The translations under genes were made by a program, and so were the position numbers. Shown here in pieces: positions 4,451 through 62,373 of a stretch of 64,000 nt of DNA. How positions within the stretch are numbered: position 1 is the stretch's first letter; each line of letters begins with the position of its first letter. Below the pieces are notes generated by a model. It did no database searches. It was not told the DNA's origin and saw nothing but the letters and a program-made list of their open reading frames with translations. Source of the DNA: an uncultured Gammaproteobacteria bacterium (GTDB taxonomy: Bacteria; Patescibacteriota; Microgenomatia; UBA1406; GWC2-37-13); assembly GCA_964543535.1 (NCBI GenBank), contig CAZIYS010000001.1, positions 195,159-259,158 of the forward strand. The letters run 5' to 3'.

Positions 4451-4458
4451 GAATCAAC

Positions 4459-5355: not shown

Positions 5356-6544
5356 ACTGACCGCTTTTGTAAATGATTTTTTTTGATCCGTCTTTTAAAA
5401 TGGCTTCAACCATCTTATCATTGGTATTGATAATATCGCAGTGCTCAACCGATTCGTTAAAACCCAAATGCTCCCAATCTTTTTCTTTCATTTTTTTAAT
5501 ATCACCATTATAACAATCATGATATGAAGTTCCAACCGCCAAATGACTATTACCGAACTGGCCGCCGAAATTCTCATCATATAAAGTATTGGCCATGAAA
5601 CGGGAGATCTTGGAAAATCTAATATCCGTCAAGGAAAACTCACCGATTTTATTGGCATTTTTTTGGGCAATCAAAGCTTTAAGCAATCCTTCGTTTTGAT
5701 CAGCTTGTGCTTTGACAACGACTCCATCTTTGAATTCTAAATGAATATTTTTAATTATATTTCCATATCTATAAAGCGGAAAGTTAAAAAATATTTTTCC
5801 GTTAACACCTCGCCAGTCAGGCGAAGTAAAGATCTCAAAAGACGGAATATTTACTCCCGAGCCACCCTGCCAAATTCTTTTTTCACCCAAAGAAATATAT
5901 AGATCGGTTTTTTCAGAAACCATATGATATTTTTCTACCGGCAGTTCGTTTAATTTTTTCTTTAAGTCATTTATCTGTCGAAAAGTTGTTTTCCATGTAG
6001 GGATCGGGTTTCCCGATCCCAAATAACAAGCATTGATTATCTCTTGCCAGAATTCTTTGATTGACAACCCTGCCTCGTGGGCCATTCCTTTGGTTCCATA
6101 CAAACACAAAGTCCAGGTTAATTTGCCTTGATCTTCTTTTTCAAATAACCATTTTCGAAGTTGTTGTTTTTCGCTGTTAGCAATGATAATCTTTTTCGGA
6201 TCAATGTCTTTTAAAAGAAACGGGTCAGTCGGAGCGATCAAATATATCCTGTGATCAATCGTATTAACTAAAGTTTTAGTATATTCTTTAGGAAAAAATT
6301 TCAGTTGATGATCTTTGGCATTTTCAAACATTACTTTCTGAAAACTTTCATCAATATTTTTCACCATCGGATAAGCGCCTTTTTCCAGAATTCTTTTGTA
6401 AACCACCAAGGCTAACGGTAGAGCTTCTGAATCATATTGAAGATAGATTATTTGTTTTTCCTTAATTCCCTGTCCTTTCCCTAGTGCGAAGTCAATCAAC
6501 ACTTTAGCGTAGTTTTCGAGAATTTTTTTTGAAGGAATAAACAT
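5345..6544 (-). CDS. aminopeptidase, M29 (AmpS/PepS) family
   Basis: 399 aa. Conserved C-terminal block GGQFGNSHLAVGTSY...VEHCDII is typical of thermophilic-metalloprotease M29. Confidence 0.8.
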   Translation of the reverse strand: MFIPSKKILENYAKVLIDFALGKGQGIKEKQIIYLQYDSEALPLALVVYKRILEKGAYPMVKNIDESFQKVMFENAKDHQLKFFPKEYTKTLVNTIDHRIYLIAPTDPFLLKDIDPKKIIIANSEKQQLRKWLFEKEDQGKLTWTLCLYGTKGMAHEAGLSIKEFWQEIINACYLGSGNPIPTWKTTFRQINDLKKKLNELPVEKYHMVSEKTDLYISLGEKRIWQGGSGVNIPSFEIFTSPDWRGVNGKIFFNFPLYRYGNIIKNIHLEFKDGVVVKAQADQNEGLLKALIAQKNANKIGEFSLTDIRFSKISRFMANTLYDENFGGQFGNSHLAVGTSYHDCYNGDIKKMKEKDWEHLGFNESVEHCDIINTNDKMVEAILKDGSKKIIYKSGQFVL

Positions 6545-9765: not shown

Positions 9766-9783
9766 GAGTATTTTGCTAAAAGT

Positions 9784-9823
9784 GTCATTCCCGCGGAGGC
9801 GGGCTATAGTCCCCTTTAGGGGA
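9784..9823. repeat. GC-rich palindromic element family A plus an adjacent small hairpin
   Basis: gtcattcccgcggaggcggg is the exact reverse complement of 58208-58227. Followed by the hairpin tcccctttagggga. Confidence 0.75.
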
Positions 9824-9921
9824 AATCCAGTCTAAAATTACTACTATGAAGTTTATAGATACGAAGCGATTCTTTTTGTTTTGAAATAATCTTATCTCGT
9901 TCTTATTGAATGATCACAATG

Positions 9922-10548
9922 TTATTTTTTCAAAATATTTTTTCTTGATTCTAAAGTAAATTTTAAACATTTATCATTTAATTTTTTATCAATTCTTTTA
10001 TGCTTAAGTAATATTGCAAAAACCTCTTTTACATTATAAATAACATGACACTTGTATCCTTGTTTCTCAATTATTTCTGGTCCTCCCTGCCACCTATCAA
10101 GTAAAACAACGATGTCTTTTACCGTCAAACCCTCATCCAAAACTGGTTTAATTGTCTCTAGTTTACTGTCACCATTGGTTATAACATCATCTACTATGAT
10201 AGCTTTTTGACCATTATGATAGTTGCCTTCAATTAATTTACTAGTTCCATATGATTTTCTTTCTTTTCTGACAAAAACCATGCGTTGATTTTGGTATAAG
10301 GAAATTGCAGTAGCTATTGGAATGGCTGTGTAAGGTACACCAACCATGACATCAAAGTATAATGTCCTCATTGTTTCCCAAAATACATTCGCGGTTAATT
10401 TGAGAAGATATGGATAAGAAACTATCATACGGAGATCGATGTAATATGGAGACATTATCCCAGACTTAAGTTTAAATTCTCCAAATTTAATACCATTAAC
10501 TGCAAACAAATCGAGAATCAGTTTTTCTCTTTGGGTAATTTTATCCAT
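9922..10548 (-). CDS. pyrE: orotate phosphoribosyltransferase
   Basis: PRPP-binding loop AIIVDDVITNGDS and an N-terminal FKLKSG-type motif. Confidence 0.85.
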   Translation of the reverse strand: MDKITQREKLILDLFAVNGIKFGEFKLKSGIMSPYYIDLRMIVSYPYLLKLTANVFWETMRTLYFDVMVGVPYTAIPIATAISLYQNQRMVFVRKERKSYGTSKLIEGNYHNGQKAIIVDDVITNGDSKLETIKPVLDEGLTVKDIVVLLDRWQGGPEIIEKQGYKCHVIYNVKEVFAILLKHKRIDKKLNDKCLKFTLESRKNILKK

Positions 10549-14231: not shown

Positions 14232-17200
14232 TTATAAATACTCGTCCCAGCTCTTAATCTTTAAATCGCTTATTTTGTATCTGTCCAGAGCATTGACAAA
14301 AAAACGGGCGGAATTTAAATCAGTGAACAATGGAATGTTGTTGTCAATCGCCGCCCGCCGGATCAGATATCCGTCGGTCTGATGTTTTTTTAATAAAACA
14401 ACATTATTATAATCTTCACTCAAATTAATCACCAAAGAAACTTGTTTTGATTTGATAATATCAACGACGTTCGGGTTTTTGCCTTCATAGACTTTATAAA
14501 CCAGACTAGTCCGAACCCCTTTAGTTTTTAAAAATTTATGAGTATTCAAAGTCGCGTACAGTTTATAACCCAGACTTTTCAAACGCCAGATTGACTCGGC
14601 AAAACGAAGTTTAAAATCATCCCCGCCAATTGTGACTAGTGCCGTCTTATTTTTTAAAGATAAACCAGTGGAAAACAGAGATTTCAAATAAGCTTCCTCA
14701 GCCGTCTCACCAAAACAAGCCACTTCTCCGGTTGAAGACATCTCAACCCGTAAAATAGGATCAGCCCCTTCCAACCTGGCAAAAGAAAATTGCGGCGCTT
14801 TGACCGCCACGTAATTGGGATATTTTATTTTGTATTCTTTACTCTTTCCAAAAAAACTGTCAACTATTACTTCGGCAAAGTTAACTCCGGTGACTTTAGA
14901 AATAAATGGAAAAGTTCGAGACGCCCGTAAATTCATTTCAATCACATAAACTTCATTGTCTTTGACCATAAACTGGATATTAAAAGGTCCGGTTATATTT
15001 AAAGAGGCGCTTAATTGATTTGCAATCTCAACCATCCGAGTACCGCTAAAGAACCGTACTCTTTCGGCCGGATAGACAATCGTTGCGTCTCCGGAATGAA
15101 CGCCGGCGTGTTCAATGTGATTGGAAATCGCATAAACTTTGACTTTACCCTCTTCCGCCACTCCGTCAAATTCGATTTCCCGGGCGTTGATAATAAATTT
15201 GGAGATTGTGACCGGATGAGTTCTGTTAATATCAGTCGCCTTTTTAATAAAATGTTTTAGTTCGGTTTCGTTATAACAAAGATTCATTGCCGCGCCGGAC
15301 AAAACATAAGATGGTCTGACTAAAATTGGATAACCAACTGTTTGACTGAACTTTAAAGCCGCCTCCATAATGGAAAAACTATTCCAAACCGGCTGCTTAA
15401 TTTTTAAGCTGTCTAATAAATGAGAAAACTTTTTCCTATCCTCAGCCCGGTCAATATCAGCGGCTTTCGTTCCTAAAATTTTGATACCGTATTGAGTAAT
15501 CTTTTGAGCAATATTATTAGGAGTCTGGCCGCCAACCGAAACCACCACTGCTGATGACTGTTCAAATTCATAGATATCAGCTACCCGTTCAAAATTTAGT
15601 TCTTCGAAATAAAGTCGGTCAGAAATATCATAGTCAGTCGAAACCGTTTCCGGATTACAGTTAACAATAATTGACTTTTTTCCATATTTTTTTAAGAATA
15701 GAGAGCTATTGACGCAGGTCCAATCAAACTCAACTGATGAGCCGATCCGGTACGGCCCAGAGCCTAAAACCATCACTCCTTTATCACCGATCGGTTTAAC
15801 ATCATGATGACTACCGTTATAGGTGGTGTATAAATAGTTTGTTTTGGCGGGAAATTCTCCGGCTAAGGTATCAATTTGGAAAACGGACGGAAATAATTTC
15901 CATTTATTTCTTAATTTCCTAATTTCTAATTCCTTGACTCCTAACAGCTCCCCGATTTTCTTATCCGAAAACCCTAATTGTTTTAGGCGTAACATTTGTT
16001 CCAGTTGTAAGGAACAAAAATTTTTGTTCCTTACGGAAGAAATTTCACGTTCTGCCTCCACAATCACCTTTAATCGATATAAAAACCAAGGATCAATACC
16101 AGATAACTGGTAGATTTTTTCCACTGACACTCCTAGTTTTAAGGCTTTAGCAATAAAAAATATTCTTTTTGAGTTAGCCTGTTTAATATTCGCCAAAACT
16201 TCCTCTTCGGTCATATCAAAATTATTATCAGTTATTCCTTGAACGCCAATATCTAACATTCTCACTCCTTTTTGAATCGCTTCCTCAAACCGGCGGCCAA
16301 TCGCCATAATCTCACCCACTGACTTCATTGAGCTGCCGATTTTTTCCGTTGTTCCTTTAAATTTATCCATATCCCAACGAGGAATTTTCACAACAATATA
16401 GTCTAAAGCCGGTTCAAAAAACGACTGAGTAACTTGAGTTACCTGATTTTTTATCTCCATTAGACTTTTACCCATTATTAATTTGGCGGCCACGTAAGCT
16501 AAAGGATAACCAGTGGCTTTGGAAGCCAAGGCTGAAGAGCGGGATAAGCGGGCATTGACTTCGATAACATAATATTCTATTTGAGGCGAGACAGGCCCCG
16601 TCGAAGGATGAGGATTGAGCGCGAATTGAACGTTACACTCCCCCACAATCCCCAAGCTCCTAACGATTTTAATTGAAAGTTCCCGCAGATAATGATATTC
16701 AAAATTAGTCAACGTCTGACTGGGAGCCACAACAATTGACTCGCCGGTATGAACGCCTAAAGGATCCATATTTTCCATATTGCAAACCGTCACACAGTTA
16801 TCATATTGGTCTCGAACTACTTCGTATTCAACTTCCTTATAATGATGGAGATATTTTTCCACCAATATCTGCGGAGAAAAAGCCAAAGCCTCTTGAGCAA
16901 TAACAATAAATTCATTTTCATTTTTAGCGATTCCCGATTTCTGGCCGCCTAAAGAAAAGCCTGCCCGGATCATCACCGGATAACCGATTTCTTGAGCTTT
17001 TTTCAAACCAACTTCAACAGAACTAACGGCAGAACTTCTCGGTGTTGCTACTTTAATTTTATGAAGATGATTGGCAAACTTTTCCCTGTCTTCAGTTAAA
17101 ATAATTGAAGAAACTGGTGTTCCCAAAACTTGAACATGATATTTACGTAAAACTCCTTTTTTGTAAAGATCCATTCCGCAGTTTAAGGCTGTCTGGCCGC

Positions 17201-17453
17201 CAAAAGACAAAACAATTGCGTCAGGTTTTTCTTTTTTAATTACCTCGGTGACAAAGTCCGGAGTCACCGGCAAAAAATAAATTTTGTCAGCCAGCTCTTT
17301 TGAAGTCTGAATCGTGGCAATATTGGGATTAATCAAAACCGTCTTAATCCCCTCTTCCTTAAAAGCCTTGATTGCTTGACTTCCTGAATAGTCAAATTCT
17401 CCAGCCTGGCCGATTTTGAGGGCTCCGGAACCAAGAATTAGTATTTTTTTCAT
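14232..17453 (-). CDS. carB: carbamoyl-phosphate synthase large subunit
   Basis: 1073 aa with two ATP-grasp halves and an MGS-like C-terminus. Collinear with CarB throughout. Confidence 0.95.
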   Translation of the reverse strand: MKKILILGSGALKIGQAGEFDYSGSQAIKAFKEEGIKTVLINPNIATIQTSKELADKIYFLPVTPDFVTEVIKKEKPDAIVLSFGGQTALNCGMDLYKKGVLRKYHVQVLGTPVSSIILTEDREKFANHLHKIKVATPRSSAVSSVEVGLKKAQEIGYPVMIRAGFSLGGQKSGIAKNENEFIVIAQEALAFSPQILVEKYLHHYKEVEYEVVRDQYDNCVTVCNMENMDPLGVHTGESIVVAPSQTLTNFEYHYLRELSIKIVRSLGIVGECNVQFALNPHPSTGPVSPQIEYYVIEVNARLSRSSALASKATGYPLAYVAAKLIMGKSLMEIKNQVTQVTQSFFEPALDYIVVKIPRWDMDKFKGTTEKIGSSMKSVGEIMAIGRRFEEAIQKGVRMLDIGVQGITDNNFDMTEEEVLANIKQANSKRIFFIAKALKLGVSVEKIYQLSGIDPWFLYRLKVIVEAEREISSVRNKNFCSLQLEQMLRLKQLGFSDKKIGELLGVKELEIRKLRNKWKLFPSVFQIDTLAGEFPAKTNYLYTTYNGSHHDVKPIGDKGVMVLGSGPYRIGSSVEFDWTCVNSSLFLKKYGKKSIIVNCNPETVSTDYDISDRLYFEELNFERVADIYEFEQSSAVVVSVGGQTPNNIAQKITQYGIKILGTKAADIDRAEDRKKFSHLLDSLKIKQPVWNSFSIMEAALKFSQTVGYPILVRPSYVLSGAAMNLCYNETELKHFIKKATDINRTHPVTISKFIINAREIEFDGVAEEGKVKVYAISNHIEHAGVHSGDATIVYPAERVRFFSGTRMVEIANQLSASLNITGPFNIQFMVKDNEVYVIEMNLRASRTFPFISKVTGVNFAEVIVDSFFGKSKEYKIKYPNYVAVKAPQFSFARLEGADPILRVEMSSTGEVACFGETAEEAYLKSLFSTGLSLKNKTALVTIGGDDFKLRFAESIWRLKSLGYKLYATLNTHKFLKTKGVRTSLVYKVYEGKNPNVVDIIKSKQVSLVINLSEDYNNVVLLKKHQTDGYLIRRAAIDNNIPLFTDLNSARFFVNALDRYKISDLKIKSWDEYL

Positions 17454-17462
17454 AATTTATAT

Positions 17463-17624
17463 AAAGCTTGATACCGTATTTTTTCGCAGACTTCACCCTA
17501 AAGGGACCCAAGTCATTTGCTCAAAAATAGGTATCTGCGCTTTAGCATATTTTAAAAAGCGAAGATATCAAATTTTTTACGGTTTTTTGTTTTCCGTTAA
17601 AAAATTTTTGATATCGAGCTTTTT
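17463..17624. repeat. composite hairpin element (module X + module E), left arm
   Basis: aaagcttgataccgt...gatatcgagcttt. It is the reverse complement of 18699-18847, with the first ~80 nt nearly identical. Confidence 0.85.
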
Positions 17625-17627
17625 CTT

Positions 17628-18689
17628 TCATATCTTTTTCAAAAAATAATCAAATATCCATTCTGTATCTGTTGGCCCCGGACTCGCCTCAGGATGAAAC
17701 TGAACTGACATAAACAGATATTTTTTATGGATAATGCCTTCATTAGTATTATCATTAGCATTAACAAACCATGGAGAAAATCCTTCAGGGATTCTTCCAA
17801 TAGCAAAACCATGGTTTTGCGTCGTCAGATAGCAACGCTTAGTACCAACCATGATGCACGGTTGATTTTGTCCGCGGTGACCAAACTTCATTTTATAAGT
17901 ATCGCCGCCGGCTGCCAAAGCGAGAATCTGATTTCCCAGACAAATTCCCAAAAGAGGAATTTTTTTTGCTAAAACTTTCTTAACGGTTTCAATCGTCACA
18001 TCAGCCATTTTCGGATCTCCTGGCCCATTCGAGACAATCATGGCATCAAAATTTAAATTCGAATTAAAAATATCAAAATCCCAAGGTACAGTAATTACTC
18101 TTACTCCCCGATTAATTAGACATCTCTTTATATTATTTTTAACACCACAATCTATTAAAACAATTGTTTTAACTTTGTTTCTATCTTGTCCACGATCGTT
18201 GTTAAGATAATATTCTTTAATAACCTTTTTTGTTGAAACAGCATTAACTAAGTTACTCAAGTTTGGATCAACAAAATTAATATCTTTGTCAAAGATAATC
18301 TTTGCCAGCTGAGCCCCTTGATCTCTTAATTTTTGGGTCAAATAGCGAGTATCTGGAATCACTAAACCGGGGATTTTTTCTTTTTTTAACCAATCACTCA
18401 AGGTCATCTGGCTTTGAAAATGCGACGGTGTATCAATATATTGAGAAACAATCAAGCCGGAAACATGAATCCTGTCCGACTCCCAAAATTTTTTATCCGG
18501 GACTCCGTAGTTACCAATAATCGGATAAGTAGCCACTAAAATTTGCCCTTCATATGAAGGATCAGTTAAACTTTCCGGATAGCCAACCATACCTGTCGAA
18601 AAGACTAACTCTCCGGATTTAGCTTGTTCATAGCCGAAGCTTTGCCCTTCAAAAACTTCGCCATCTTTTAAGATTAGTTTTGCTAACAT
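17628..18689 (-). CDS. carA: carbamoyl-phosphate synthase small (glutaminase) subunit
   Basis: GICLGNQ catalytic Cys block and HRG.N/HGF motifs. Confidence 0.95.
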   Translation of the reverse strand: MLAKLILKDGEVFEGQSFGYEQAKSGELVFSTGMVGYPESLTDPSYEGQILVATYPIIGNYGVPDKKFWESDRIHVSGLIVSQYIDTPSHFQSQMTLSDWLKKEKIPGLVIPDTRYLTQKLRDQGAQLAKIIFDKDINFVDPNLSNLVNAVSTKKVIKEYYLNNDRGQDRNKVKTIVLIDCGVKNNIKRCLINRGVRVITVPWDFDIFNSNLNFDAMIVSNGPGDPKMADVTIETVKKVLAKKIPLLGICLGNQILALAAGGDTYKMKFGHRGQNQPCIMVGTKRCYLTTQNHGFAIGRIPEGFSPWFVNANDNTNEGIIHKKYLFMSVQFHPEASPGPTDTEWIFDYFLKKI

Positions 18690-18698
18690 AATTTATTT

Positions 18699-18847
18699 AA
18701 AAAGCTCGATATATAAATTTTTACGAAAAACTAAAAAGTCGCAAAAATTATATATCTTCGCTTTTGAAAAAGTGCAGATACCTTTTTTGAGCAAATGACT
18801 TGGGTCCCTTTAGGGTGAAGTCTGCGAAAAAAACGGTATCAAGCTTT
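18699..18847. repeat. composite hairpin element (module E + module X), right arm, inverted
   Basis: Reverse complement of 17463-17624. Its terminal aagcttt supplies the last codons and the stop of pyrB. Confidence 0.85.
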
Positions 18848-20081: not shown

Positions 20082-20112
20082 ACCTATCTGTGACGGCCGT
20101 CTCAAATAGGTA
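20082..20112. repeat. GC-rich palindromic element family D, intergenic copy
   Basis: acctatctgtgacggccgtctcaaataggta matches 3770-3805. Confidence 0.8.
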
Positions 20113-20151
20113 AATAAAAATCATCAAAAAGAAATGTGTTTTCATCGCCTC

Positions 20152-26889: not shown

Positions 26890-26919
26890 CTTTGTATTTT
26901 ATTGGAAATTAATTATTAT

Positions 26920-26948
26920 CCCTCGACTCGTTTTACTCGCTCGGGATG
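26920..26948. repeat. GC-rich palindromic element family C, intergenic copy
   Basis: ccctcgactcg-ttttac-tcgctcgggatg. Related inverted copy at 39036-39064. Confidence 0.75.
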
Positions 26949-26958
26949 AAGATTAGGT

Positions 26959-37633: not shown

Positions 37634-38563
37634 TTAAACCCCGCATCCTCCTCCGGTTTTTGGCGGCTGTTCGACTATTCCTTTATTAATTAACCACTGT
37701 TTAGCCGCTTGCCAACCTGAGGAAGAAGAAAATTCTTTACCTAATATTATCTGGGCTGGAACCTGGCTAAATTTTTTCCCTTCCTTATTTTTAAAGTATA
37801 ACGCCAAATCATAGTAATTACTTGGGAACCAAAATGCATTAAAGTATTTGGCCGCTTCAAACATCTGATTTTCCGTGGCATTATTTCCTGCCATCAACTG
37901 TAACACTGCCAGTAACGCCATTCCGTGGTTGCAGTCCGGAAAAGCAGTCGAATTATCACAACAAGGACGATAGATATTGCCAGCTACTTTTGCCACTAAC
38001 GCCTGTTGTTGATCGTTTAATGAAATCAGGCTTTCTTTTGAAAAATAATTCATTGGGTCACCGGCCGCCAAGCTCCAGCCACCGGTTGAGGCAAAATTAC
38101 CAACCTTGCCTTCACCGTACTTAACAATATCGCCTTCATCTAAAACCTTTGATTTATTGTTTAAACCAACGGCCCAGAAAAAGTTGAGCAAAAAATAAGA
38201 ATTGTCACGATCTATCTTGATTTTTTTATCTGATCCTTTAGTCAAAATTTCCAGCTGCTCTTTAGTTAACGGCTGAGCGCTCTTTTCATATGTCTGTTTA
38301 AACTTTTCCAGATCAATCACTCCGGAAGCAACCATTTTAGGCCCTAAATCGTCATATTTCGCATTAATCTCAAAGCCTTTTTCCGGATTAATTTCATCAA
38401 ATAAATTTGCCGTTTCTTTTTTCGCGGCAGTTTCTTTGCTTTTTGAGATTAACTTATTAACCTGCGGCTTTAACACATAGGCTAAAGCTAAAATATTTAA
38501 CCCCAAACTCAATCCCAAAACAATAAGCCAAAGATTTTTGGCTGGTTTTTTTGTTCTTTTCAT
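37634..38563 (-). CDS. secreted Cys-rich protein, P-C-C-D...D-C-x-H family (paralog 2), ends in GGGCGV
   Basis: Signal anchor. YRPCCDNSTAFPDCNHG. ATGA overlap with the upstream CcdA-like gene. Confidence 0.6.
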   Translation of the reverse strand: MKRTKKPAKNLWLIVLGLSLGLNILALAYVLKPQVNKLISKSKETAAKKETANLFDEINPEKGFEINAKYDDLGPKMVASGVIDLEKFKQTYEKSAQPLTKEQLEILTKGSDKKIKIDRDNSYFLLNFFWAVGLNNKSKVLDEGDIVKYGEGKVGNFASTGGWSLAAGDPMNYFSKESLISLNDQQQALVAKVAGNIYRPCCDNSTAFPDCNHGMALLAVLQLMAGNNATENQMFEAAKYFNAFWFPSNYYDLALYFKNKEGKKFSQVPAQIILGKEFSSSSGWQAAKQWLINKGIVEQPPKTGGGCGV

Positions 38564-39393
38564 TTTTTTTTAATTAATTTATAAAAAATAAAAATAATAA
38601 AACTGAAAATTAATAAATCGATGATCGGATTTTGAAAATATTTGGAGATATTAAAAACCATCAGCCGTAAAGGTTTAGTATAAACTTCCATCTGATACAT
38701 CTGGATCTTATTGTAATAATTAAAAATAATAATCAAAACTCCGGAGATGATAAAAATTCCTGCTCCTAAAGCCTGAAAGATTTTGTAGATTTTTTCCCGA
38801 TTAGAACCGGAAATTTTATTGGTTAGTTTATTGTAGAAAAGAGACAGAATAAAAAGCGGGAAAACTATCCCCAATACATAAGCTAAAGAGACAATTAAGG
38901 CCTGAAATAAAGTCGGTGATAAACTGGTCAGAGTGACGGCCGCAAACAAAACCGGCGCGCAACAGGAAGAAGAAAGCCCTGACATTACCCCTAAACTAAA
39001 CACCGAAAATATATTTATTTTTTCTCCCCCCTTGTCATCCCGAGCGAGCGGAGCGAGTCGAGGGAGCTTAAAAAGTTGGGGGAAATGAAAGATTGGTTTA
39101 ATCGTCATAAATCCCATAAAAATCAAAAACAATCCTCCAAAATAATAAATTTGCTTATGCCAACTGTCAAAAAAGAAGATAAAAAATCTAAATCCCAAAG
39201 CGACCGGAATTAAGATTATCGATAAACCCAGTGCAAATACCAAGGTATAAAACATTACTTTTGTTCCGCTTTTGAAAACCGTTCCCAGATAAGAAGGAAA
39301 TAAAAATGTGATACAGCATGGGGCAAACAAAGCCAAGACTCCGGCCAAAAACGAAGCGGTCAAGGAAATGCCGAAGAAAAAGTTGCTATTCAT
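38560..39393 (-). CDS. CcdA-like membrane protein with vicinal Cys-Cys in both halves (copy 2)
   Basis: LFAPCCITFLFPSY and SSCCAPVLFA. Carries the family C repeat in a loop. Confidence 0.7.
   Translation of the reverse strand: MNSNFFFGISLTASFLAGVLALFAPCCITFLFPSYLGTVFKSGTKVMFYTLVFALGLSIILIPVALGFRFFIFFFDSWHKQIYYFGGLFLIFMGFMTIKPIFHFPQLFKLPRLAPLARDDKGGEKINIFSVFSLGVMSGLSSSCCAPVLFAAVTLTSLSPTLFQALIVSLAYVLGIVFPLFILSLFYNKLTNKISGSNREKIYKIFQALGAGIFIISGVLIIIFNYYNKIQMYQMEVYTKPLRLMVFNISKYFQNPIIDLLIFSFIIFIFYKLIKKK
39036..39064. repeat. GC-rich palindromic element family C, in-frame copy inside a CDS
   Basis: catcccgagcgag-cggag-cgagtcgaggg, translated as part of PRLAPLARDD. The paralog at 31580..32428 lacks these residues. 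Confidence 0.75.
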
Positions 39394-39999: not shown

Positions 40000-40046
40000 A
40001 TGCTATATTTCGTACGGAACAAAAATTTTTGTTCCCTACAATTTAA

Positions 40047-43095: not shown

Positions 43096-43479
43096 TTATT
43101 CTGATTTCGCTTTATATGTTGAATTAATAAAATTATTTAGTTTTAAAGATAGTGTCTGACTCAAGTTTTTAAATTGCTTATACAAATCTTTATTAATTTT
43201 ATATCTTTTATTTATTAATTCAATCCAATGCTCATTAGCTTCGTTAAGCGATCCTCGACTATTGTAGTAAAATTTGATTTTATCAAGATAATGAAATCTA
43301 CTATAGCCCTCAGAGATATTTGCTCCAATAGAATCAACCGATTCGATAAATTGAAAACCTATAATCTTTTTGCTCTCCCAATCCATAAAACGATATATTT
43401 CCCATGCAATATCTGACAGCTGTCTGGAAATTTTATAAACTTCTAAGTCAGTTAATAAAATATATTGATGTTTTTGCAT
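43096..43479 (-). CDS. four-helix-bundle protein (23S rRNA intervening-sequence protein family)
   Basis: SIGANISEGYSRF...YYNSRGSLNE hallmark. Confidence 0.8.
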   Translation of the reverse strand: MQKHQYILLTDLEVYKISRQLSDIAWEIYRFMDWESKKIIGFQFIESVDSIGANISEGYSRFHYLDKIKFYYNSRGSLNEANEHWIELINKRYKINKDLYKQFKNLSQTLSLKLNNFINSTYKAKSE

Positions 43480-43510: not shown

Positions 43511-43604
43511 TTAATCTCTAATTTCTATCAGTTTCCTAATCTCTCAATTTCAATTAGTTTCCTAATCTCTCAATTTCAATTAGTTTCTTAATCTCTAATT
43601 TCTA
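43511..43604. repeat. 26-bp tandem repeat (two perfect units plus partial flanking copies)
   Basis: agtttcctaatctctcaatttcaatt x2 at 43530-43581. ttaatctctaatttcta occurs on both sides. Confidence 0.8.
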
Positions 43605-46758: not shown

Positions 46759-48276
46759 TCATTCAATGTAATGAGCTCCGAGGCTTTTGGGACGAGCTAA
46801 GGCCGCTTTAGTGATAATCGTCGCTACCTCTAATAAATTAATTACCTCAAGCAGTTTTTTTAATGTCTTACTATCCCCTTTTATTTTAACAACTTCATTC
46901 ATTTTCAAATTATTAATTTTATTTATTTCCTTAACTATTTTTTTCATTTTTACAAAATAATTAAGTGCTGATATTAATTCACTTTTTCTTCTTACGATGC
47001 CAACTTTTTCCCACATAATTTTTTTAATATCTTTTTTCATTTTATTTAATAAATCTTTATTTTTTTTATTAAATACAGCTGTTAAATTTTTATTTTTTCC
47101 CTGCCCCTCGAAGCCCGAAGGACGAAGTGGGGTTCTTTGATAATTATTCCTTATATATCCACTGACTTGTTTTCCAAAGACAACTGCCTCAAGAAGCGAA
47201 TTGGAAGAGAGCCGGTTTGCCCCATGGACTCCGGTCGCCGCTACCTCTCCAACTGCAAATAGATTTTTAACGGAAGTTTTCCCTTGGAGATCAGTCGTGA
47301 TTCCCCCACATAGATAATGAGCGGCCGGCGTGATGGGAATACGGTCTTTTGTCAAATCAAAACCATATGTTTTTAGTCTTTTGTAAATATTAGGAAATTT
47401 TTTAATGATCTGTCTTTTATCAATATGGCTCATTGTAAGATAGACCGCTGAATTTTTTTGTTTTTCATAAATTATCCGGGAAAGTTCGTCGCGAAGGATA
47501 AGTTCCGAAACAAATCGGTTGCCTTTTTCATCAATGATTTGCGCCCCTTCTCCCCGCAGCCGTTCTGATAATAAAAATAAAGGAGAGATTTTGTATTTTA
47601 ATGCCGTCGGATGGAACTGGACAAACTCAACATCAGACAAATCTGCTCTAGCCCTTTTACCAATAGCAATGCCGTCTCCGGTGGCTACTTTTGGATTGGT
47701 TGTCCATTGGTAAACTTGTCCGGCGCCACCAGTGGCTAAAATAATCGCTTTGGCAAAAAAAGCGATAATTTTATTATCTTCGGTTAAAACAAAGATTCCC
47801 TCGCAAATATTATTTTTAACAATTAAATCAATTGCTAAAGAATTGTTAAAAATATTGATCTGTTTATTTTTAGTTACTTTATTTAAAAGTGTTGCTACAA
47901 TATCTTGACCGGTAAAATCAGTCGTGTGAAAAATCCTAGGCCTTCGATGACCGGCTTCCAGTGAAGGCGTGGTATCAAACAAAACTCCTTGATTTTTTAA
48001 CCAAAAAAATGCTTCCCTGCTGTTTTTGACAAGAAGAGAAACTGCCTTTTTTTTGTTATGATAGTCCCCTGCCTTTATTGTATCTTCAACATGCCAACCG
48101 GCCCGGTCATTTTTAGCGGTCATGGCCGCCATTCCACCTTGGGCTAAATTAGTTGATGAATCAGAGGGATTTTTTTTAGTGAAGATGGCAACGCTATCTG
48201 AGTTTCTCAAAGTCAAGGCAGTCGTCAATCCGGCCAGACCGGAGCCGATGATAATGTAATCAAACTTGTTTTTCAT
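46759..48276 (-). CDS. nadB: L-aspartate oxidase
   Basis: FAD motif IIGSGLAGL, plus RPRIFH and GANRLSSNSLLE. Confidence 0.9.
   Translation of the reverse strand: MKNKFDYIIIGSGLAGLTTALTLRNSDSVAIFTKKNPSDSSTNLAQGGMAAMTAKNDRAGWHVEDTIKAGDYHNKKKAVSLLVKNSREAFFWLKNQGVLFDTTPSLEAGHRRPRIFHTTDFTGQDIVATLLNKVTKNKQINIFNNSLAIDLIVKNNICEGIFVLTEDNKIIAFFAKAIILATGGAGQVYQWTTNPKVATGDGIAIGKRARADLSDVEFVQFHPTALKYKISPLFLLSERLRGEGAQIIDEKGNRFVSELILRDELSRIIYEKQKNSAVYLTMSHIDKRQIIKKFPNIYKRLKTYGFDLTKDRIPITPAAHYLCGGITTDLQGKTSVKNLFAVGEVAATGVHGANRLSSNSLLEAVVFGKQVSGYIRNNYQRTPLRPSGFEGQGKNKNLTAVFNKKNKDLLNKMKKDIKKIMWEKVGIVRRKSELISALNYFVKMKKIVKEINKINNLKMNEVVKIKGDSKTLKKLLEVINLLEVATIITKAALARPKSLGAHYIE
47102..47133. repeat. GC-rich palindromic element family B, in-frame copy inside nadB
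   Basis: The reverse complement differs by 1 nt from 58226-58257. Translated here as TPLRPSGFEGQG. Confidence 0.8.
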
Positions 48277-54962: not shown

Positions 54963-55115
54963 GATCGCCTTTTGAAAGGAGGTGATAAATAAGAAAAAGG
55001 GAGTGTACTCAACCCCTACTTACACCATACGGTGTAGATAATTCCAACAGGCCTGCAAAAGGTACTGACGGAAAACGAGAGAAAACGAAAAGTAAGATAA
55101 GAACAAGGAGTTAAA

Positions 55116-55796
55116 ATGAACCCGCAACTAGGACGACAGCAACAACAAGCACCCGCCGCAGCCGCACAACAAGCGCCGCAACCAGGACAGCAACCGCGCC
55201 CACAGCAACCGACGTGGTTTGCTCGAAACCGAAATTGGGTGATCCCTATGATCATCTTGATCGCAATCGTTTTTTGCCTTTCCTGCTTGGTCATCACAGG
55301 CCTCGTTGGATATGCATTCACGCGATCCGCCGCCGCTGTTCCCACCGCCCCGTACGCCCCCCCCGCTTCAACCGAAGCCCCCGCTCTGCCCACCCCCGCC
55401 GCGCCCGCGAATTCCTCATGTCCCACCACTCAAGAGGCCAAGAACCTCACTGGTGTTGACGTCCAACGCTTAGGCACAGAACCTTGTGCTTGGGTTTGGA
55501 GAGGAGTTCCCCCTGCCACTACGTTCGCCCGCTGTCCATCTGGATTCGCCTGCACCTGGGATGTCGTCAACGACATAACTGTTGTGCATTCTGGCGTCAA
55601 CCAGACTGCTGAAATTCACGCGGGAACGTGGAGATTTGTGGCGGCTTACCCGACCAGTGATGCAGTGCACGATATTTGTGCGCTCTATCAGAAAGAAAAG
55701 GCCTTCGGCTTGTCCGAAGTTCCTAGCTTTCAGGTTAGGTTTCAGTCCGTCACAGACGGCTCTTTGGGCCCTATTGGTCCGCAAACCTGTCCGTAA
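55116..55796 (+). CDS. GC-rich foreign-looking gene: Gln/Pro/Ala-rich tail, one TM helix, Cys-rich ectodomain
   Basis: SD aaggag 7 nt upstream. 226 aa. Six ectodomain Cys. Base composition is sharply different from the flanks. Confidence 0.6.
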   Translation: MNPQLGRQQQQAPAAAAQQAPQPGQQPRPQQPTWFARNRNWVIPMIILIAIVFCLSCLVITGLVGYAFTRSAAAVPTAPYAPPASTEAPALPTPAAPANSSCPTTQEAKNLTGVDVQRLGTEPCAWVWRGVPPATTFARCPSGFACTWDVVNDITVVHSGVNQTAEIHAGTWRFVAAYPTSDAVHDICALYQKEKAFGLSEVPSFQVRFQSVTDGSLGPIGPQTCP

Positions 55797-56813: not shown

Positions 56814-57877
56814 AAAACAAAGTAATTGTTATTTCAAGCTATCCGGAAAAGTCCCTGACTCATGGTGAAAAGACCGTCGGTGTAGCTTCATACACTAAGA
56901 ATCTTTTATTGAATTTGAAAAATATCAATTTTGAGGTCTTGGCGGAAATTCATAATAAAAAAGAGAAATATGAAGAACAAGGTATTCTTGTCAATCGTGT
57001 TTGGAGGCGTAATTCTATCACCTCAATGATCGATTTGATGAACTACGTCACCAAAAGTCAAGTGATGACAATCGTTGTTCCTCTCGAATTTTATATGTTT
57101 GGAGGGTTAGTACAAAATATTGTTTTTCTTTACTCGCTTTTAGTATGGAAACTGTCTGGAAAAAAAATAATCTTAATTTTGCACCAAGTCGTGCTTTTTG
57201 TGAAAATATTCTATTTGCCGTTAATATTTTTGTCAGAAGAGGTCGTTGTTTTTGAAGAAAAATTTAGAAAAGTTTTAGGAAGTAAAAAAGTTGTCTTTAT
57301 TCCTCATGCCGTTGAATCGGTTCACATAGAAAAAACAAAAATAAATAAAAAATTCTCTGCTTTATATTTTGGTTTTCTTTCTCCATATAAAGGAGTAAAA
57401 GAATTAATAAATCTTTGGGATAAAAAGTTTGGTGCATTAATCATTGCGGGAGGCGGTAACCCTAACCATATGAAAAATAAACGGTATTTTGATTTCCTAA
57501 AAAATATTAAGGCCACCGGTTTTGTACCGGAAGATAAAATCGCCGATTATTTTTCAAAAACCAACCTAGTTATTTTACCTTATAAAATGTTTTTTTCTTC
57601 ATCCGGTCCTTTATCATTGGCTTTTTCTTTTGAAAAACCGTTTATTTTGTCAAAACCGCTCGAAGGGTATTTTGATAGCCCGGATTTTGACGAAGCTTTG
57701 AAAGAAACTGGATTAAAAAAGGAAGATTTTCTTTTTGATTTTAATAGCGAAAGTTTTGAAAATCGATTGAATTGGGCGAAGAAAAATCTCAACAAATTGA
57801 CTGCGTTTTCAAGGATAATGAAAGAAAAGAGAGCTTGGAAAAACGTCGCCAAACAATATGAAACACTTCTTAAGTAA
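56810..57877 (+). CDS. GT-B glycosyltransferase (GT1/GT4-like)
   Basis: C-terminal GFVPEDKIADYF...LPY block. ATGA overlap with the GT2 gene. Confidence 0.65.
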   Translation: MKNKVIVISSYPEKSLTHGEKTVGVASYTKNLLLNLKNINFEVLAEIHNKKEKYEEQGILVNRVWRRNSITSMIDLMNYVTKSQVMTIVVPLEFYMFGGLVQNIVFLYSLLVWKLSGKKIILILHQVVLFVKIFYLPLIFLSEEVVVFEEKFRKVLGSKKVVFIPHAVESVHIEKTKINKKFSALYFGFLSPYKGVKELINLWDKKFGALIIAGGGNPNHMKNKRYFDFLKNIKATGFVPEDKIADYFSKTNLVILPYKMFFSSSGPLSLAFSFEKPFILSKPLEGYFDSPDFDEALKETGLKKEDFLFDFNSESFENRLNWAKKNLNKLTAFSRIMKEKRAWKNVAKQYETLLK

Positions 57878-60728
57878 ATATAGATATCAGTTATTACTTT
57901 TTCTTATTGCTGCCATTCTCTTTTGGGTGAATTATTCACCGGGAACATACCTTTCCGGCTGGGACAATCTGCAGACTGAATTAAATCCCGAACTGGCTGT
58001 CAAACGGGCGTTTTTTAGCGTCTGGGAAGAGTATCAAAGCTTTGGTTTAACGGCCGGTATGGCTCATGCGGCTGATCTGCCCAGAGCGGTTCTCTTATGG
58101 CTCGTTTCGTTTGTCTTACCCCAAAATATGATCCGGTATTTTTATCATTTTTTGATGTTATTGTTAGGAGGGTTGGGAATGTTTAAGGTAATTATAGGAC
58201 TGGATCCCCGCCTCCGCGGGAATGACCCCACTTCGCCCTTCGGGCTTCGAGGGGCAAGCAATAAAACAATTGCCTTCCTTGGCGCTCTGTTTTATATGCT
58301 CAACCTTGGTACTGTCCAGATTTTTTATCTGCCGTTTGAATCTTTCTCGACTTTCTTTGCTCTCCTGCCGTGGGGGGTGTGGACGTTTATAAAAATAATA
58401 TCAAATATCAAATATCGAATATTAAAAAGAGATCTTCTGATTTTTTTTCTTATCAACCTTTTGGGCACACCCGCCTTTTATACCCAACAACTTTTTATTG
58501 TGTATATGCTGGTTTTAGGATGCATTGCTTTGGGAAAACTTAAAAATATAAAGAGAATATTTCTCGCTTTTTTTCTAATTTTAATTATAAATTCTTTCTG
58601 GATTCTACCGCAGGTATATTTTTTGAAAACCAATGGCGGTTGGCTAACTCAGGCCAAATCCAATCAAATCACCACCGAAGACACTCTTTATCAAAACTTA
58701 GAAAAAGGAACACTTGGTAATTTTTTAAGACTTGAGGGGTTTTACTTTGACCTCAGAGGAATACATAGCACTCCCCTTTTTTCGCCTTGGAAAGATCATT
58801 TTCAGGGAGCTTTTGAATTGCTCTCATATGCTTTTGCCGGATTGATGATTTTGGGTTTTTTAAAAACTATCAAAGAAAAAAAAATTGGCTTTGTTTTAAT
58901 TTTCGTTCTCTCTGCCACAGTTCTGCTTTTAGCAACACCGCCTTTTTCCTGGATCAACGAACTAATCAGACAGATTCCTATCATTAATCAAATCTTTCGT
59001 TCCCCTTTTACGAAGTTTATTATTCCTTATTCGTTGGTTTATAGTTATTTCGTCGTAAAAGGACTGTCCTTTTTCGGAACTAATTTGAAAAAGGTCAGTC
59101 CTTATATAATAGTTTTGATTTTTCTCTACTCTCTTCCCGCTTTCCAAGGCTATTTCTTTTCTCCGGAAATGAAAGTTACAATCCCAAATGATTATTCTCA
59201 AGTGATGAATTATTTTAAAACTGCTGAGAAAAACAAAAGGATTGCTCTTCTTCCCGATTATACTTTTTGGGGCTGGTTTTTTAATAAATGGGGTTATAAC
59301 GGGTCAGGATTTTTATGGTATGGGATTGAACAGCCGATTGTTTCCCGGACTTTTGACGTCTGGAGCTCAAAGAGCGAGTCATATTTTTGGGAAGAAAAAC
59401 AGGCGCTTGAGGCAGAAGATCTAACCCAATTTGAAAAAGTTCTTGATAAATACAACATAGATTATTTAATCATGGACTATTCTCTGATTCCGGTTGTCTC
59501 AAGTTATAAAAGTTTGGCCACCGATAGAATAGAAAATCTAATATACGCAAGTCAAAAGATTTCTTTAGTTTTCCGAGGAGAAAATGTCGCCCTTTATCAA
59601 GTCAGCCATCCGCAAAAAATAGAAAGTTTCGTTACTTTGTCATCAGGATTAAAAAATATCGGACCGGAAGTAAAGTTGATGATCGAGGACCGTGCTTATC
59701 AAGAAAATGGCGATTATATTTTGGATTCCCGCCCTGATATTTATTATCCGTTTGCTGATCTAACAACCCAAACGAGAATCAAAGATAAACAGTGGAACAT
59801 AAAAGAGTTAATTAACTCTTTTTCTATCAACTCTGATGTTGGTTTAGATCTTAACAACTATCAATTTAACATGCCATTGACCTCTACTGCCGGTATTTCC
59901 AATGATCAAGTAATAGCTAATTTAAAACTTAATCTAAATCCTTTTTTTGAAGACAAAAAAATCAAAATTAACTTTGAAAAAGTGTTAGTTAAATCGTTTG
60001 ATGTTAGTGGTTTCAATAATAATTTGACGGAATACGCTTTGACTGCGCCGGAATTGCCACAAAAATATGGTTATCTAATCAAAATCCGAAGTAAAAATAT
60101 CAAAGGTTCTCCATTATTTTTTTATATTGTTGATGAAACAAAAAAACAGTCGATGCTCGAAGAAAAATTAAGAGTCGATACCGAATATTTTATTTTACCT
60201 CATAAATTCGATTACGGCCTCGGATATTCTTTTGTCTTTCAAAATAAATCTTACAAAAACTATCCCTCGGAAAATTTGCTGGAAGAAGTATCTGTCTATT
60301 TGTTTCCATACGAAGAGTTAAAAAGTGCCAAGTTTATTAAAAATAATTCAACTCTAACAATACCAAGCTTTTCTGATGAATTTGAAGCTAAAAAAATTAA
60401 TTATTTTACCTACAAAGTCGTTATTAACAATGAAGTAATAAAACGATCCAATAATTTGATTTTATATCAATCCTACGACGACGGCTGGATTGCCATCTCC
60501 GGCGGAAAAAAACTTGACCATGTCTTAGTCAACAACTGGGCCAACGGATGGGAAATCAGTAGTCAGAAGTTAGAAGTTAGTAGTCAGCTAAAAGGAAAAA
60601 AACTAATTCCTAACTACCAACTACCAACTACTATTATCATCATCTTCTGGCCGCAGTACCTGGAGTTTTTGGGGTTTGGACTACTAATCGTTGCTTTTTT
60701 ATTTATTATTAAACAGAAGAATCTTTAA
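57858..60728 (+). CDS. large polytopic membrane protein, GT-C-like with soluble C-terminal domain
   Basis: 956 aa. N-terminal YLSGWDNLQTELNP loop, more than 12 TM helices, and a final TM helix. Carries repeat elements A+B in frame. Confidence 0.6.
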   Translation: MKHFLSKYRYQLLLFLIAAILFWVNYSPGTYLSGWDNLQTELNPELAVKRAFFSVWEEYQSFGLTAGMAHAADLPRAVLLWLVSFVLPQNMIRYFYHFLMLLLGGLGMFKVIIGLDPRLRGNDPTSPFGLRGASNKTIAFLGALFYMLNLGTVQIFYLPFESFSTFFALLPWGVWTFIKIISNIKYRILKRDLLIFFLINLLGTPAFYTQQLFIVYMLVLGCIALGKLKNIKRIFLAFFLILIINSFWILPQVYFLKTNGGWLTQAKSNQITTEDTLYQNLEKGTLGNFLRLEGFYFDLRGIHSTPLFSPWKDHFQGAFELLSYAFAGLMILGFLKTIKEKKIGFVLIFVLSATVLLLATPPFSWINELIRQIPIINQIFRSPFTKFIIPYSLVYSYFVVKGLSFFGTNLKKVSPYIIVLIFLYSLPAFQGYFFSPEMKVTIPNDYSQVMNYFKTAEKNKRIALLPDYTFWGWFFNKWGYNGSGFLWYGIEQPIVSRTFDVWSSKSESYFWEEKQALEAEDLTQFEKVLDKYNIDYLIMDYSLIPVVSSYKSLATDRIENLIYASQKISLVFRGENVALYQVSHPQKIESFVTLSSGLKNIGPEVKLMIEDRAYQENGDYILDSRPDIYYPFADLTTQTRIKDKQWNIKELINSFSINSDVGLDLNNYQFNMPLTSTAGISNDQVIANLKLNLNPFFEDKKIKINFEKVLVKSFDVSGFNNNLTEYALTAPELPQKYGYLIKIRSKNIKGSPLFFYIVDETKKQSMLEEKLRVDTEYFILPHKFDYGLGYSFVFQNKSYKNYPSENLLEEVSVYLFPYEELKSAKFIKNNSTLTIPSFSDEFEAKKINYFTYKVVINNEVIKRSNNLILYQSYDDGWIAISGGKKLDHVLVNNWANGWEISSQKLEVSSQLKGKKLIPNYQLPTTIIIIFWPQYLEFLGFGLLIVAFLFIIKQKNL
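58208..58257. repeat. composite GC-rich palindromic elements A+B, in-frame inside a CDS
   Basis: 58208-58227 is the reverse complement of 9784-9803. 58226-58257 matches 47102-47133. Translated as DPRLRGNDPTSPFGLRGAS. Confidence 0.85.
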
Positions 60729-61392: not shown

Positions 61393-61632
61393 TTGTTTTT
61401 TGCCAACGGAAAAATCCTTGATCATGTTTTAGTCAACAACTGGGCTAACGGTTTTCGATTAAACCAAGTAAATAATTTTAATAAATTTCAACCCTTCGAT
61501 TTCACTCAGGGTAAACCAGTTTCTACTAATTTCAATGTTTTTATAATATTTTGGCCGCAGTATCTGGAGTTTTTGGGGTTTGGATTGATGATTCTGGCGT
61601 TGTCTACAACCACAATCGCATTTAAAAAATAA
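61393..61632 (+). pseudogene. displaced second copy of the 3' end of gene 57858..60728
   Basis: KILDHVLVNNWANG...IIFWPQYLEFLGFGL parallels KKLDHVLVNNWANG...IIFWPQYLEFLGFGL at 60504-60728. Confidence 0.6.
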
Positions 61633-61743: not shown

Positions 61744-62340
61744 CTAACTATAAAGACCGAAGTAAGTCTTTAGCTGACTTTCTCGCTCTAATTTTTCGGC
61801 AATAATATAGCTTATATATTTTCCGCCTTCGACTATTTTTTTGATTAAACCAATCTCCTTCTCACATTCATAAGGAAAAACATAAACGCTTTGGTTGTAA
61901 GGATAAAAACTAATCTCCTTTAAAAAACTTCTTAAATAATTACGTTTATTTCTCTCCTCTTCTGGTACATCAAAAACCACTATAAACCATTTTCCTTGCC
62001 ACTTCTTTTTTTTCTTAAGATTTAAAACTTCTCGTAGTGAATATTTCAAAATAGAAACATCATCTTTATTTTTTACAGTCACAGAAATTTCTTCTCCTTT
62101 TCTTTCAATTTGAATTAATTTCTTTTTTTCAAGCTGCTTTAATACTCGTTTTGCTTTTTCTTTCGGTATTTTTATTCCTTTAAATTCTTCAATAATCTTA
62201 AGTATTCCTCCCAAAACAATGGGAAAATTTGGCGTGATAAAAATGGAGCCGCCTAAAACCAAACCGATTCCTAAAGCGGCTAGGATATATTGTTTTAATT
62301 CATTCGGTTTAAATTTTTTCTCTTTTTGGTTATTAGTCAT
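61744..62340 (-). CDS. membrane-anchored protein with PaaX-C / Cas2-fold-like C-terminal domain
   Basis: WQGKWFIVVFDVPEEERNKRNYLRSFLKEISFYPYNQSVYVFP. ATG at 62340 is preferred, because the track's N-terminus is encoded by the repeat. Confidence 0.5.
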   Translation of the reverse strand: MTNNQKEKKFKPNELKQYILAALGIGLVLGGSIFITPNFPIVLGGILKIIEEFKGIKIPKEKAKRVLKQLEKKKLIQIERKGEEISVTVKNKDDVSILKYSLREVLNLKKKKKWQGKWFIVVFDVPEEERNKRNYLRSFLKEISFYPYNQSVYVFPYECEKEIGLIKKIVEGGKYISYIIAEKLERESQLKTYFGLYS

Positions 62341-62352
62341 AATCCTTAGCAT

Positions 62353-62373
62353 ACAACTCTCGTGCGGCCGCAT
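62353..62373. repeat. 21-bp direct repeat, copy 2
   Basis: Identical to 61703-61723. Similarity continues for ~10 nt further. Confidence 0.9.

Follow-up and report, generated by a model that had tools for sequence, protein, structure and literature searches.

Repetitive extragenic palindromic sequences (REPs) of the CGTC class are short hairpins that carry a CGTC tag, often replaced by TGTC (CCTC also being allowed), on an 8-bp stem that opens with an A-T and a T-A pair and ends in a loop of 4 nt, with CCA as the tail; CGTC-1 corresponds to dRS3 of Neisseria and to RPE-6 of Rickettsia conorii, of which in-frame intragenic copies have been documented (Di Nocera et al. 2013, PMC3733652). The same survey likewise equates RPE-4 with CGTC-4 and cites the protein-coding palindromic repeats of Ogata and Claverie. 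The GIY-YIG nuclease SsnA binds and cleaves the Neisseria transformation sequence (NTS), CGTCATTCCCGCGMAVGCGGGAATCYRG, which includes dRS3, in its single-stranded form; ssnA genes are typically bracketed by such motifs, related motifs (SRM) are distributed over several phyla, and binding and cleavage by the cognate nuclease have been demonstrated for Neisseria SsnA and a few homologues only (Nat Commun 2025, PMC11893778). Herein we analyzed a 64-kb stretch of DNA from a Patescibacteria (Microgenomates) genome, referred to as the window, in which two GC-rich hairpins, element A (27 nt) and element B (33 nt), lie in frame within protein-coding genes. The results make it probable that both belong to the REP class of selfish repeats, being small, hairpin-forming and non-autonomous, and that they have settled in loop- or linker-coding segments of otherwise ordinary genes of this genome.

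The in-gene copy of A (58200-58226, minus strand) reads (G)GTC-ATTCCCGC-GGAG-GCGGGGAT-CCAG, with one T.G pair in the stem, and the general form of the window copies is (T/G)GTC-ATTCCCGC-GGAG-GCGGG(G/A)AT-CCAG. The intergenic copy (9783-9830, plus strand) carries a TGTC tag at 9783-9786 and is split by a hairpin of 20 nt, CTATAGTCCCCTTTAGGGGA (9804-9823), that is nested behind GCGGG; excision of this hairpin gives the canonical 27-mer GTCATTCCCGCGGAGGCGGGAATCCAG. The tag, which is GGTC in the copy at 58.2 kb and TGTC in nearly all of 51 copies from related DNA described below, the 8-bp stem starting with AT, the 4-nt loop and the CCA tail were in good agreement with the anatomy of CGTC-1 REPs. 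The copy at 58.2 kb differed from the 28-nt NTS consensus at three positions, and copies from relatives, such as TGTCATTCCCGCGAAGGCGGGAATCCAG, agreed with it everywhere but at base 1. A literature search with the sequence of A led to the Ssn report (PMC11893778). Classified by its sequence, element A is a CGTC-1 REP and belongs with dRS3/NTS of Neisseria and RPE-6 of Rickettsia in one family. It has thus been described already as an element, and what is new is its patescibacterial host. Head-to-head dimers and GIY-YIG genes flanked by GTCAT hairpins likewise occur in the relatives. A differs from dRS3/NTS in its host, a Patescibacteria genome with a GC content of approximately 35%, of a phylum unmentioned in the searched text of PMC3733652 and PMC11893778; further differences are that approximately half of the A copies lie within open reading frames (ORFs), that each window copy departs from the NTS/SRM patterns at one to three positions, and that the window showed no ssn gene.

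Element B is a GC-rich imperfect hairpin, CCCACTTCGCCCTTCGGGCTTCGAGGGGCAAGC, whose in-gene copy (58227-58259, plus strand) directly adjoins that of A, and whose second copy (47099-47132, minus strand, one mismatch) lies within nadB. At this site lies a GC-rich island, 58197-58255, the second-longest of 53 such islands in a window of 34.8% GC and surpassed only by that at 55317-55417 (101 nt). The 20-mer GTCATTCCCGCGGAGGCGGG of A had two exact sites, 9784-9803 (+) and 58207-58226 (-), no third site in the window at up to two mismatches, and no match at that stringency in 100 dinucleotide-preserving shuffles. The 31-mer CCCCACTTCGCCCTTCGGGCTTCGAGGGGCA of B was found at 58226-58256 (+) and, with one mismatch, at 47102-47132 (-), and had no match in the shuffles; a repeat search paired 47093-47133 with 58225-58265 (41 nt, 90% identity). 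A previous sequence-only reading of the window had reported both repeat pairs, which were reproduced as an exact repeat and a repeat with one mismatch, respectively, although its 58208-58227 for A was displaced by one base and its ends for B were likewise one base off. Its placement of both elements in frame in a membrane-protein gene, and of B in the linker that follows the FAD domain of NadB, was also borne out. The former host is an intact ORF (57858-60728, plus strand) for a 956-aa polytopic protein reading ...VIIG-LDPRLRGND-PTSPFGLRGAS-NKTIA..., in which A encodes LDPRLRGND (residues 115-123) and B encodes PTSPFGLRGAS (residues 124-134), the insert-encoded segment being LDPRLRGNDPTSPFGLRGAS. 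The latter is an intact 505-aa ORF for L-aspartate oxidase (46759-48276, minus strand; FAD_binding_2, E=7e-85) reading ...NNYQR-TPLRPSGFEGQG-KNKN..., in which B encodes residues 382-393 between the FAD and C-terminal domains. The orientation of B with respect to the mRNA is the same in both genes, where, as had been claimed, B is read in two frames, which lie one base out of register.

To place these copies in a wider context, we used a set of related DNA consisting of 80 loci from a metagenome scan with an alignment of the membrane protein and four from exact-protein look-ups, approximately 0.92 Mb in total, which contained the 51 A-type copies, all non-redundant; 28 of them were in long ORFs, and the other 23 were intergenic. 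Twenty-three of the 28 genic copies had the orientation and frame yielding L/M-D-S/P-R-L/F-R/H-G-N/D-D, a bias that partly stems from orthologous, non-independent sites. Stem variants were paired (CCCGC/GCGGG, CCCGT/ACGGG, CCTGC/GCAGG, CCCTC/GAGGG and CCTTC/GAAGG), and among 26 distinct 28-mers (alignment A4), 97% of the stem cells were paired, with two-sided changes at four of the eight pairs; none of 500 shuffles equalled the observed two-sided-change cell count or covariation score, the input of this test having been pre-selected for at most two stem mismatches. Head-to-head dimers of A, the arrangement in which CGTC-1 REPs mostly occur, were common in these relatives (L020, L027, L038, L068 and L091, one lying within nadB of L091), while the two window copies form no such dimer. 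The 3′ flank of A is mostly CCAGACTATAAT or CTATATAAT, which resembles a -10 box (window 58190-58204; L020, L027, L038, L091 and others), and the conserved VIIG ahead of LDPRLRGND in the membrane protein is translated from this flank, so that the repeat unit of A may exceed 27 nt. In IMG/VR, a strict A pattern, GTCATTCCCGCGNAGGCGGGRATCC, was present in at least 120 viral or proviral contigs (L095-L174 and beyond), often as inverted pairs 50-80 nt apart.

Comparison of the membrane-protein orthologues revealed that the insertion site is a place of continual change. In an AF2 model of the 956-aa protein, the A and B site lies in a coil (residues 121-135, pLDDT <50) between helices 89-115 and 136-155, and approximately 75 orthologues varied widely in the loop between these helices. 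The loop was empty in the shortest orthologues (LLGG-GITA); the closest ones (P0122/P0128, 79% identity) had neither A nor B and instead an unrelated loop of 15 residues, and others contained A, A variants or a TAAVK-type palindrome. A second hairpin was nested in the loop of A in L020, L026 and L088b, and the membrane-protein loop of L011 carried another GTCAT subtype (RSARND). On a neighbour-joining tree built without the loop, which carries no support values, the A state (18 of 74 tips) required at least 13 changes as compared with 16.3 for randomised labels, indicating recurrent gain or frequent loss.

As for the identity of this protein, the earlier description as a membrane glycosyltransferase-like gene is plausible but weakly supported, and its probable assignment to the GT-C type is no more than suggestive: the window protein had no Pfam match, three of 28 orthologues matched DUF6541 weakly, a few homologues had precomputed YfhO or GT-C (AftD) matches, and a Foldseek search with the AF2 model, which is polytopic but of low confidence (pLDDT 64.8), gave STT3/OST catalytic subunits as the top PDB matches (E=2e-4, but TM about 0.15-0.2). 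A GT1 gene lies directly upstream. The 3′ end of the gene is partly duplicated approximately 900 nt downstream (60503-60697 and 61407-61601, 78-89% identity), with a 117-aa ORF on the opposite strand between the two copies, an arrangement that looks like the remnant of a rearrangement or insertion; farther downstream, a 209-aa ORF (61744-62373, minus strand) carries a PaaX central Cas2-like domain (E=3e-19).

The NadB linker exhibited a similar behavior. NadB homologues are labelled Patescibacteria, Roizmanbacteria or Levybacteria where a name is given, which places the source genome among the CPR/Microgenomates; no nadB lay within the 10-kb flanks of the metagenome loci. In alignment A1, the linker after the FAD domain was hypervariable. 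B or B-like peptides were present in orthologues of 69-80% identity (P0002, P0004, P0017, P0020 and P0026), dimers of A translated as SFPRRRES...MDPRLRGDD in P0008 and P0010, and A in another frame (VIPAKAGIQ) in P0016; further linkers contained GC-rich repeat peptides (PACRQAG and FDVAQDDPERSR) or AT-rich ones, and orthologues at or below 56% identity had none of these insert peptides. Both host sites are hotspots of insertion or turnover, not sites of single clean insertions. The window nadB and that of L089 (4094-5638) were 81.5% identical overall, with 93-100% identity at nt 510-720 and 1020-1290 and 65-80% elsewhere. B lies in the second of these high-identity tracts, where the sole change is in its inner hairpin, GTCCTTCGGGC in the window versus TCCCGACTGAGTCGGGA in L089, the latter being the stem-loop of an A variant. 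This mosaic with its swapped core indicates that the segment recombined recently and that the hairpin core was exchanged at the same time or afterwards, and these sequence comparisons indicate that part of the spread of the elements probably proceeds through homologous recombination of the surrounding gene segment.

Since peptides resembling LDSRLRGND recur in many orthologues and most genic copies of A share one frame, we considered whether the shared sequences represent a conserved functional peptide motif, or else artefacts of assembly or chimerism. Either is highly improbable. At least three frames and both orientations are represented among the translations of B (TPLRPSGFEGQ, PTSPFGLRGAS, TPRSPKGEVG and CPSKPEGRSG), A has intergenic copies and is translated variously as LDSRLRGND, SFPRRRES, VIPAKAGIQ and IPAFAGMT, and the inserts are missing from the nearest orthologues. 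As for artefacts, like structures were present in independent assemblies from JGI, ENA and NCBI (L088, L089 and L090), and an independent Logan contig (L215) was 100% identical to window 1-5361, which includes another in-gene palindrome. The evidence therefore supported tolerated mobile hairpins, not a protein motif, as the sequence-only reading had argued: copies exist outside these genes and in other frames and orientations, other hairpin-derived peptides occupy both host sites in other orthologues, and the NadB insert extended only down to orthologues of approximately 69% identity, with no insert in the distant ones whose possession of it had been named as a refutation. A target motif shared by the insertion sites, for which that reading had proposed a test, was not evident in the comparison of flanks.

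The in-frame tolerance can be accounted for by the elements themselves and by their location. The unit lengths of 27 and 33 nt are multiples of three, and surviving copies lie in permissive surface loops, to which they add just 9-11 residues. A has a stop codon in one frame only, the other five of six being open, and B has none in any of the six; this near-absence of stop codons follows from the elements being GC-rich in an AT-rich genome.

In alignment A3 of related contigs, an AT-rich tail, AACAATG-AAGCAATGAAACAATCG..., normally comes after A and encodes NNETMKQSN-like peptides; L016 and L028 have the tail and lack B, and in L088 the 33-nt AAACCCCACTTCGCCCTTCGGGCTTCGAGGGGC sits within the tail. 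As judged from this alignment, B is a discrete, clean 33-nt insertion into the AT-rich tail after A. In L088, one gene contains this composite, consisting of A, the tail and B, at two sites, and B is translated there as TPLRPSGFEGQA, in the NadB frame, whereas in the window gene the 16-17 nt separating A from B are gone and B is read as PTSPFGLRGAS.

In a scan of GTDB representatives (one genome per species), the 28-mer of B occurred in seven genomes, belonging to Berkelbacteria, Saccharibacteria, Peribacteria, Curtissbacteria, Alphaproteobacteria, Gammaproteobacteria and Kiritimatiellae, with a local GC content of 43-67%, as against an estimated chance expectation of approximately 1e-4. Wherever a host gene was identifiable outside the lineage, B was in frame: identical B (28-29-mer, 100%) lies in CysRS of Peribacteria, between the catalytic and DALR domains, in PheRS-alpha of Curtissbacteria in the opposite orientation (TPRSPKGEVG), and in RuvX of an alphaproteobacterium (CPSKPEGRSGV). 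The gammaproteobacterial contig has in addition a variant of B, CCCCACTTCGCCAAGGCTTCGCGGGG, 6.5 kb from B. Searches by sequence gave no literature match for B and none in IMG/VR, and Rfam at gathering thresholds returned only tRNAs in the window, so that B appears to be a second hairpin family, one for which a search by sequence found no published description. A sub-threshold Rfam match to FtrB at 58150-58320 (E=2, 16 bits versus a gathering score of 66) was at chance level and was discarded. The complete identity of B across phyla would imply either that B has spread between phyla very recently or that its copies derive from a conserved master template. We entertain, with some doubt, the possibility that B is a currently active, coding-compatible hairpin module (33 nt, six frames open) moving between phyla. 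If this were true, B would insert as single-stranded DNA into hairpin loops and AT-rich linker-coding DNA by means of an enzyme, its inner hairpin would appear to be exchangeable, as with the A-variant stem-loop forming the core in L089, and the mechanism would be worth finding.

An alternative is that the elements are past transposing and are old residents of hypervariable loops, shaped by vertical descent, deletion, slippage or template switching, and homologous recombination between lineages. At the membrane-protein loop, A keeps one orientation and one frame throughout the orthologues, which is also compatible with a single old insertion that was repeatedly lost and altered in place, rather than with repeated insertion; the mosaic tract of nadB, with its hairpin core swapped in an otherwise identical segment, is of the kind expected from such processes, and neither a transposase in the window nor a target-site duplication was evident. 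On the other hand, the 20-nt match of A and the 31-nt match of B join loci of one genome that are unrelated, a single L088 gene contains the A-tail-B composite at two sites, and recombination of flanks cannot deliver identical B to unrelated genes across phyla. We therefore regard this alternative as somewhat unlikely, and favor repeats of the selfish REP class that still generate copies. According to this proposal, new copies would arise at the level of single-stranded DNA, preferentially in or beside existing hairpins and AT-rich tails, which would produce nested and adjacent elements and make certain loops hotspots, and copies would then pass between related genomes through homologous recombination of the flanking gene segment.

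Retention of the hairpins for a host function as nucleic-acid structures, with their selfish origin being secondary, was also weighed. They might serve as Ssn cut sites bounding recombination tracts during DNA uptake, as NTS do in Neisseria, where NTS and SsnA modulate transformation (PMC11893778), or as ribosome-slowing mRNA hairpins between transmembrane helices or domains. The stems remain paired through two-sided changes in orthologous and paralogous copies, the insertions occupy boundary positions (transmembrane loops of GT-C-like and DsbD-like proteins, the interdomain linker of NadB and the linker between the catalytic and DALR domains of CysRS), and one high-identity tract of the nadB mosaic is centered on the B-bearing linker. 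However, the closest orthologues have no hairpin at the same sites, purifying selection acting on random insertions would equally leave loop positions, palindromes can stay paired without a role for the host, and the mosaic is a single example. A host function is thus unlikely to be what maintains them, and the selfish interpretation is retained.

With regard to the enzymes that might mobilise the elements, the related contigs offered two types of candidates. In L068, a 97-aa GIY-YIG protein (PF01541, E=9e-16) is encoded between GTCATTCTGGAG-type hairpins, and homologues in L092, L093 and L094 likewise lie between GTCAT-tagged hairpins, a layout corresponding to the SRM-ssn-SRM architecture described in PMC11893778. 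These flanking hairpins are of stem subtypes other than A, and the protein gave only weak UPF0213/UvrC matches against PDB. Considering the literature together with these contigs, the most likely candidate for the cognate protein of A would be a GIY-YIG single-strand nuclease of the Ssn type, with its gene at another place in this genome, by which A may be mobilised.

The second type comprises RAYT-like Y1 genes (NF047646, E=1e-19; Y1_Tnp), found in L091 (3618-4256), L030 (13209-13835) and L025 (2781-3407), each with its own flanking hairpins, and a diverged B-like copy lies approximately 430 nt from the gene of L025. B, and possibly A, could on this basis be REPs moved by a RAYT or IS200-type Y1 tyrosine transposase, as has been proposed for GTAG REPs. 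Nevertheless, the hairpins beside those genes (CACCGCTTCGGTG, in inverted orientation, and CCTGTC..GACCCCTGGGGTC..) are neither A nor B, so that B was rejected as the REP of these genes; furthermore, neither element carries a GTAG tag and no Y1 gene was found in the window, which leaves mobilisation by such a transposase distinctly unlikely. The ORF next to the intergenic copy of A (9922-10548), initially suspected of encoding a RAYT, proved to be a phosphoribosyltransferase gene. In L091, the DnaB gene matched intein-splicing and LAGLIDADG domains.

Several points weigh against the view of A and B as mobile selfish repeats, besides the constant orientation and frame of A at the membrane-protein loop and the above-mentioned limits of the frame bias, the covariation test and the neighbour-joining tree. 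The 64-kb window contains just two copies of each element, and their flanks show no evident target-site duplication or common target motif. The published strict SRM regular expression had no match in the window, each A copy being off at one or two positions and the intergenic one being interrupted as well. Searches of the window for a GIY-YIG or Y1 transposase gene with regular expressions, with tblastn using the RAYT-like protein of L091 and with Pfam on unassigned small ORFs yielded none. CGTC REPs are without a dedicated transposase according to the 2013 survey (PMC3733652), and Ssn has been reported to cut single-stranded DNA and to modulate transformation, not to transpose repeats (PMC11893778).

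Among the described systems, the Rickettsia RPEs provide a close parallel. Like A and B, they are in-frame hairpins in functional housekeeping genes, absent from orthologues, with two insertions or dimers in some genes and with tRNA synthetase and DNA repair genes among the hosts. A and B likewise form in-frame parts of intact ORFs, are missing from orthologues, and occur also elsewhere or in other frames, as is characteristic of protein-coding palindromic repeats. The differences are the other phylum and lifestyle of the host and the fact that B is not an RPE; beyond what is described for Rickettsia are the turnover at a single-loop hotspot across many orthologues, the nested hairpins and the swapped core. 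The present case adds a host and further examples to what is already known from Rickettsia, and the kind of element is not new.

The GTAG REPs, BIMEs and REPINs associated with RAYT are likewise short, often paired hairpins thought to be mobilised as single-stranded DNA, and RAYT-like genes exist in the related contigs; A and B differ in lacking the GTAG tag, and the RAYT-like genes here stand beside other hairpins. Bacterial miniature inverted-repeat transposable elements (Correia/NEMIS, Nezha and RUP) are also non-autonomous and can sit inside genes, but they measure 70-300 bp and have terminal inverted repeats and target-site duplications, unlike the single hairpins of 27 and 33 nt. The GC clusters of yeast mitochondrial DNA, which occur in frame in var1, are GC-rich palindromic mobile elements of an AT-rich genome that are tolerated in coding sequence; unlike A and B, they are organellar and belong to an unrelated sequence family, and we know of no enzyme linked to them.

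These findings extend CGTC/NTS hairpins and in-gene selfish DNA of the Rickettsia style to the Candidate Phyla Radiation (CPR), whose genomes are tiny and assumed to be streamlined. Peptide strings such as LDSRLRGND, SFPRRRES, VIPAKAGIQ and TPLRPSGFEGQA in CPR and metagenome proteins are translated repeats, not domains, and bear on annotation, alignments and the building of protein families. The hotspot loops constitute a natural experiment in gain, loss, nesting, core swapping and recombination over dozens of orthologues, as well as a concrete place to ask what role Ssn-type GIY-YIG nucleases play outside Neisseria.

Three more palindromic families were found in the window, each with one in-frame and one intergenic copy. 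The GTCAT-tagged GTCATCCCGAGCGAGCGGAGCGAGTCGAGGGA lies in frame at 39035-39065 in a DsbD_TM-like ORF (38560-39393, minus strand), where it encodes LPRLAPLARDD (residues 110-120), and a copy of 87% identity stands at 26919-26949, with a thioredoxin-like ORF on one side and a second DsbD-like ORF on the other. The 32-nt palindrome ACCTATCTGGGACGGCCGTCACGGATAGGTAA (ACCTATC..GATAGGT) at 3771-3802 is in frame (TYLGRPSRIGK) in a PMT-like GT-C-type ORF (2759-4450, minus strand) and is the in-gene palindrome shared with the Logan contig mentioned above; its intergenic copy (20082-20113, 88% identity) lies directly past a tRNA-Leu gene. The third, the AT-rich 34-nt palindrome TTCCGTAAGGAACAAAAATTTTTGTTCCTTACAA at 16005-16038, is in frame in carB (14232-17453, minus strand), encoding SSVRNKNFCSLQ (residues 472-483) within the oligomerisation domain of the carbamoyl-phosphate synthase large chain, and has an intergenic copy of 91% identity at 40008-40041. 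Being AT-rich, it indicates that the in-frame palindromes of the window are not solely GC-rich.

Other features of the window concern carA and two further segments. The carA gene (17628-18689) lies between inverted repeats of approximately 170 nt (17479-17651 and 18672-18832), whose outer 49 nt (17479-17527 and 18784-18832) are 100% complementary and which contain the 69-nt D1 repeat recurring at 35743 and 37172; this segment could be invertible or mobile. The longest GC island, at 55317-55417, is C/G-rich and is covered by overlapping ORFs on opposite strands (55016-55429, minus; 55116-55796, plus), in which it may encode a proline-rich segment. Finally, three tandem copies of a 26-nt unit, AATTTCTATCAGTTTCCTAATCTCTC, occupy an intergenic region at 43520-43597, upstream of the ORF at 43096-43479.

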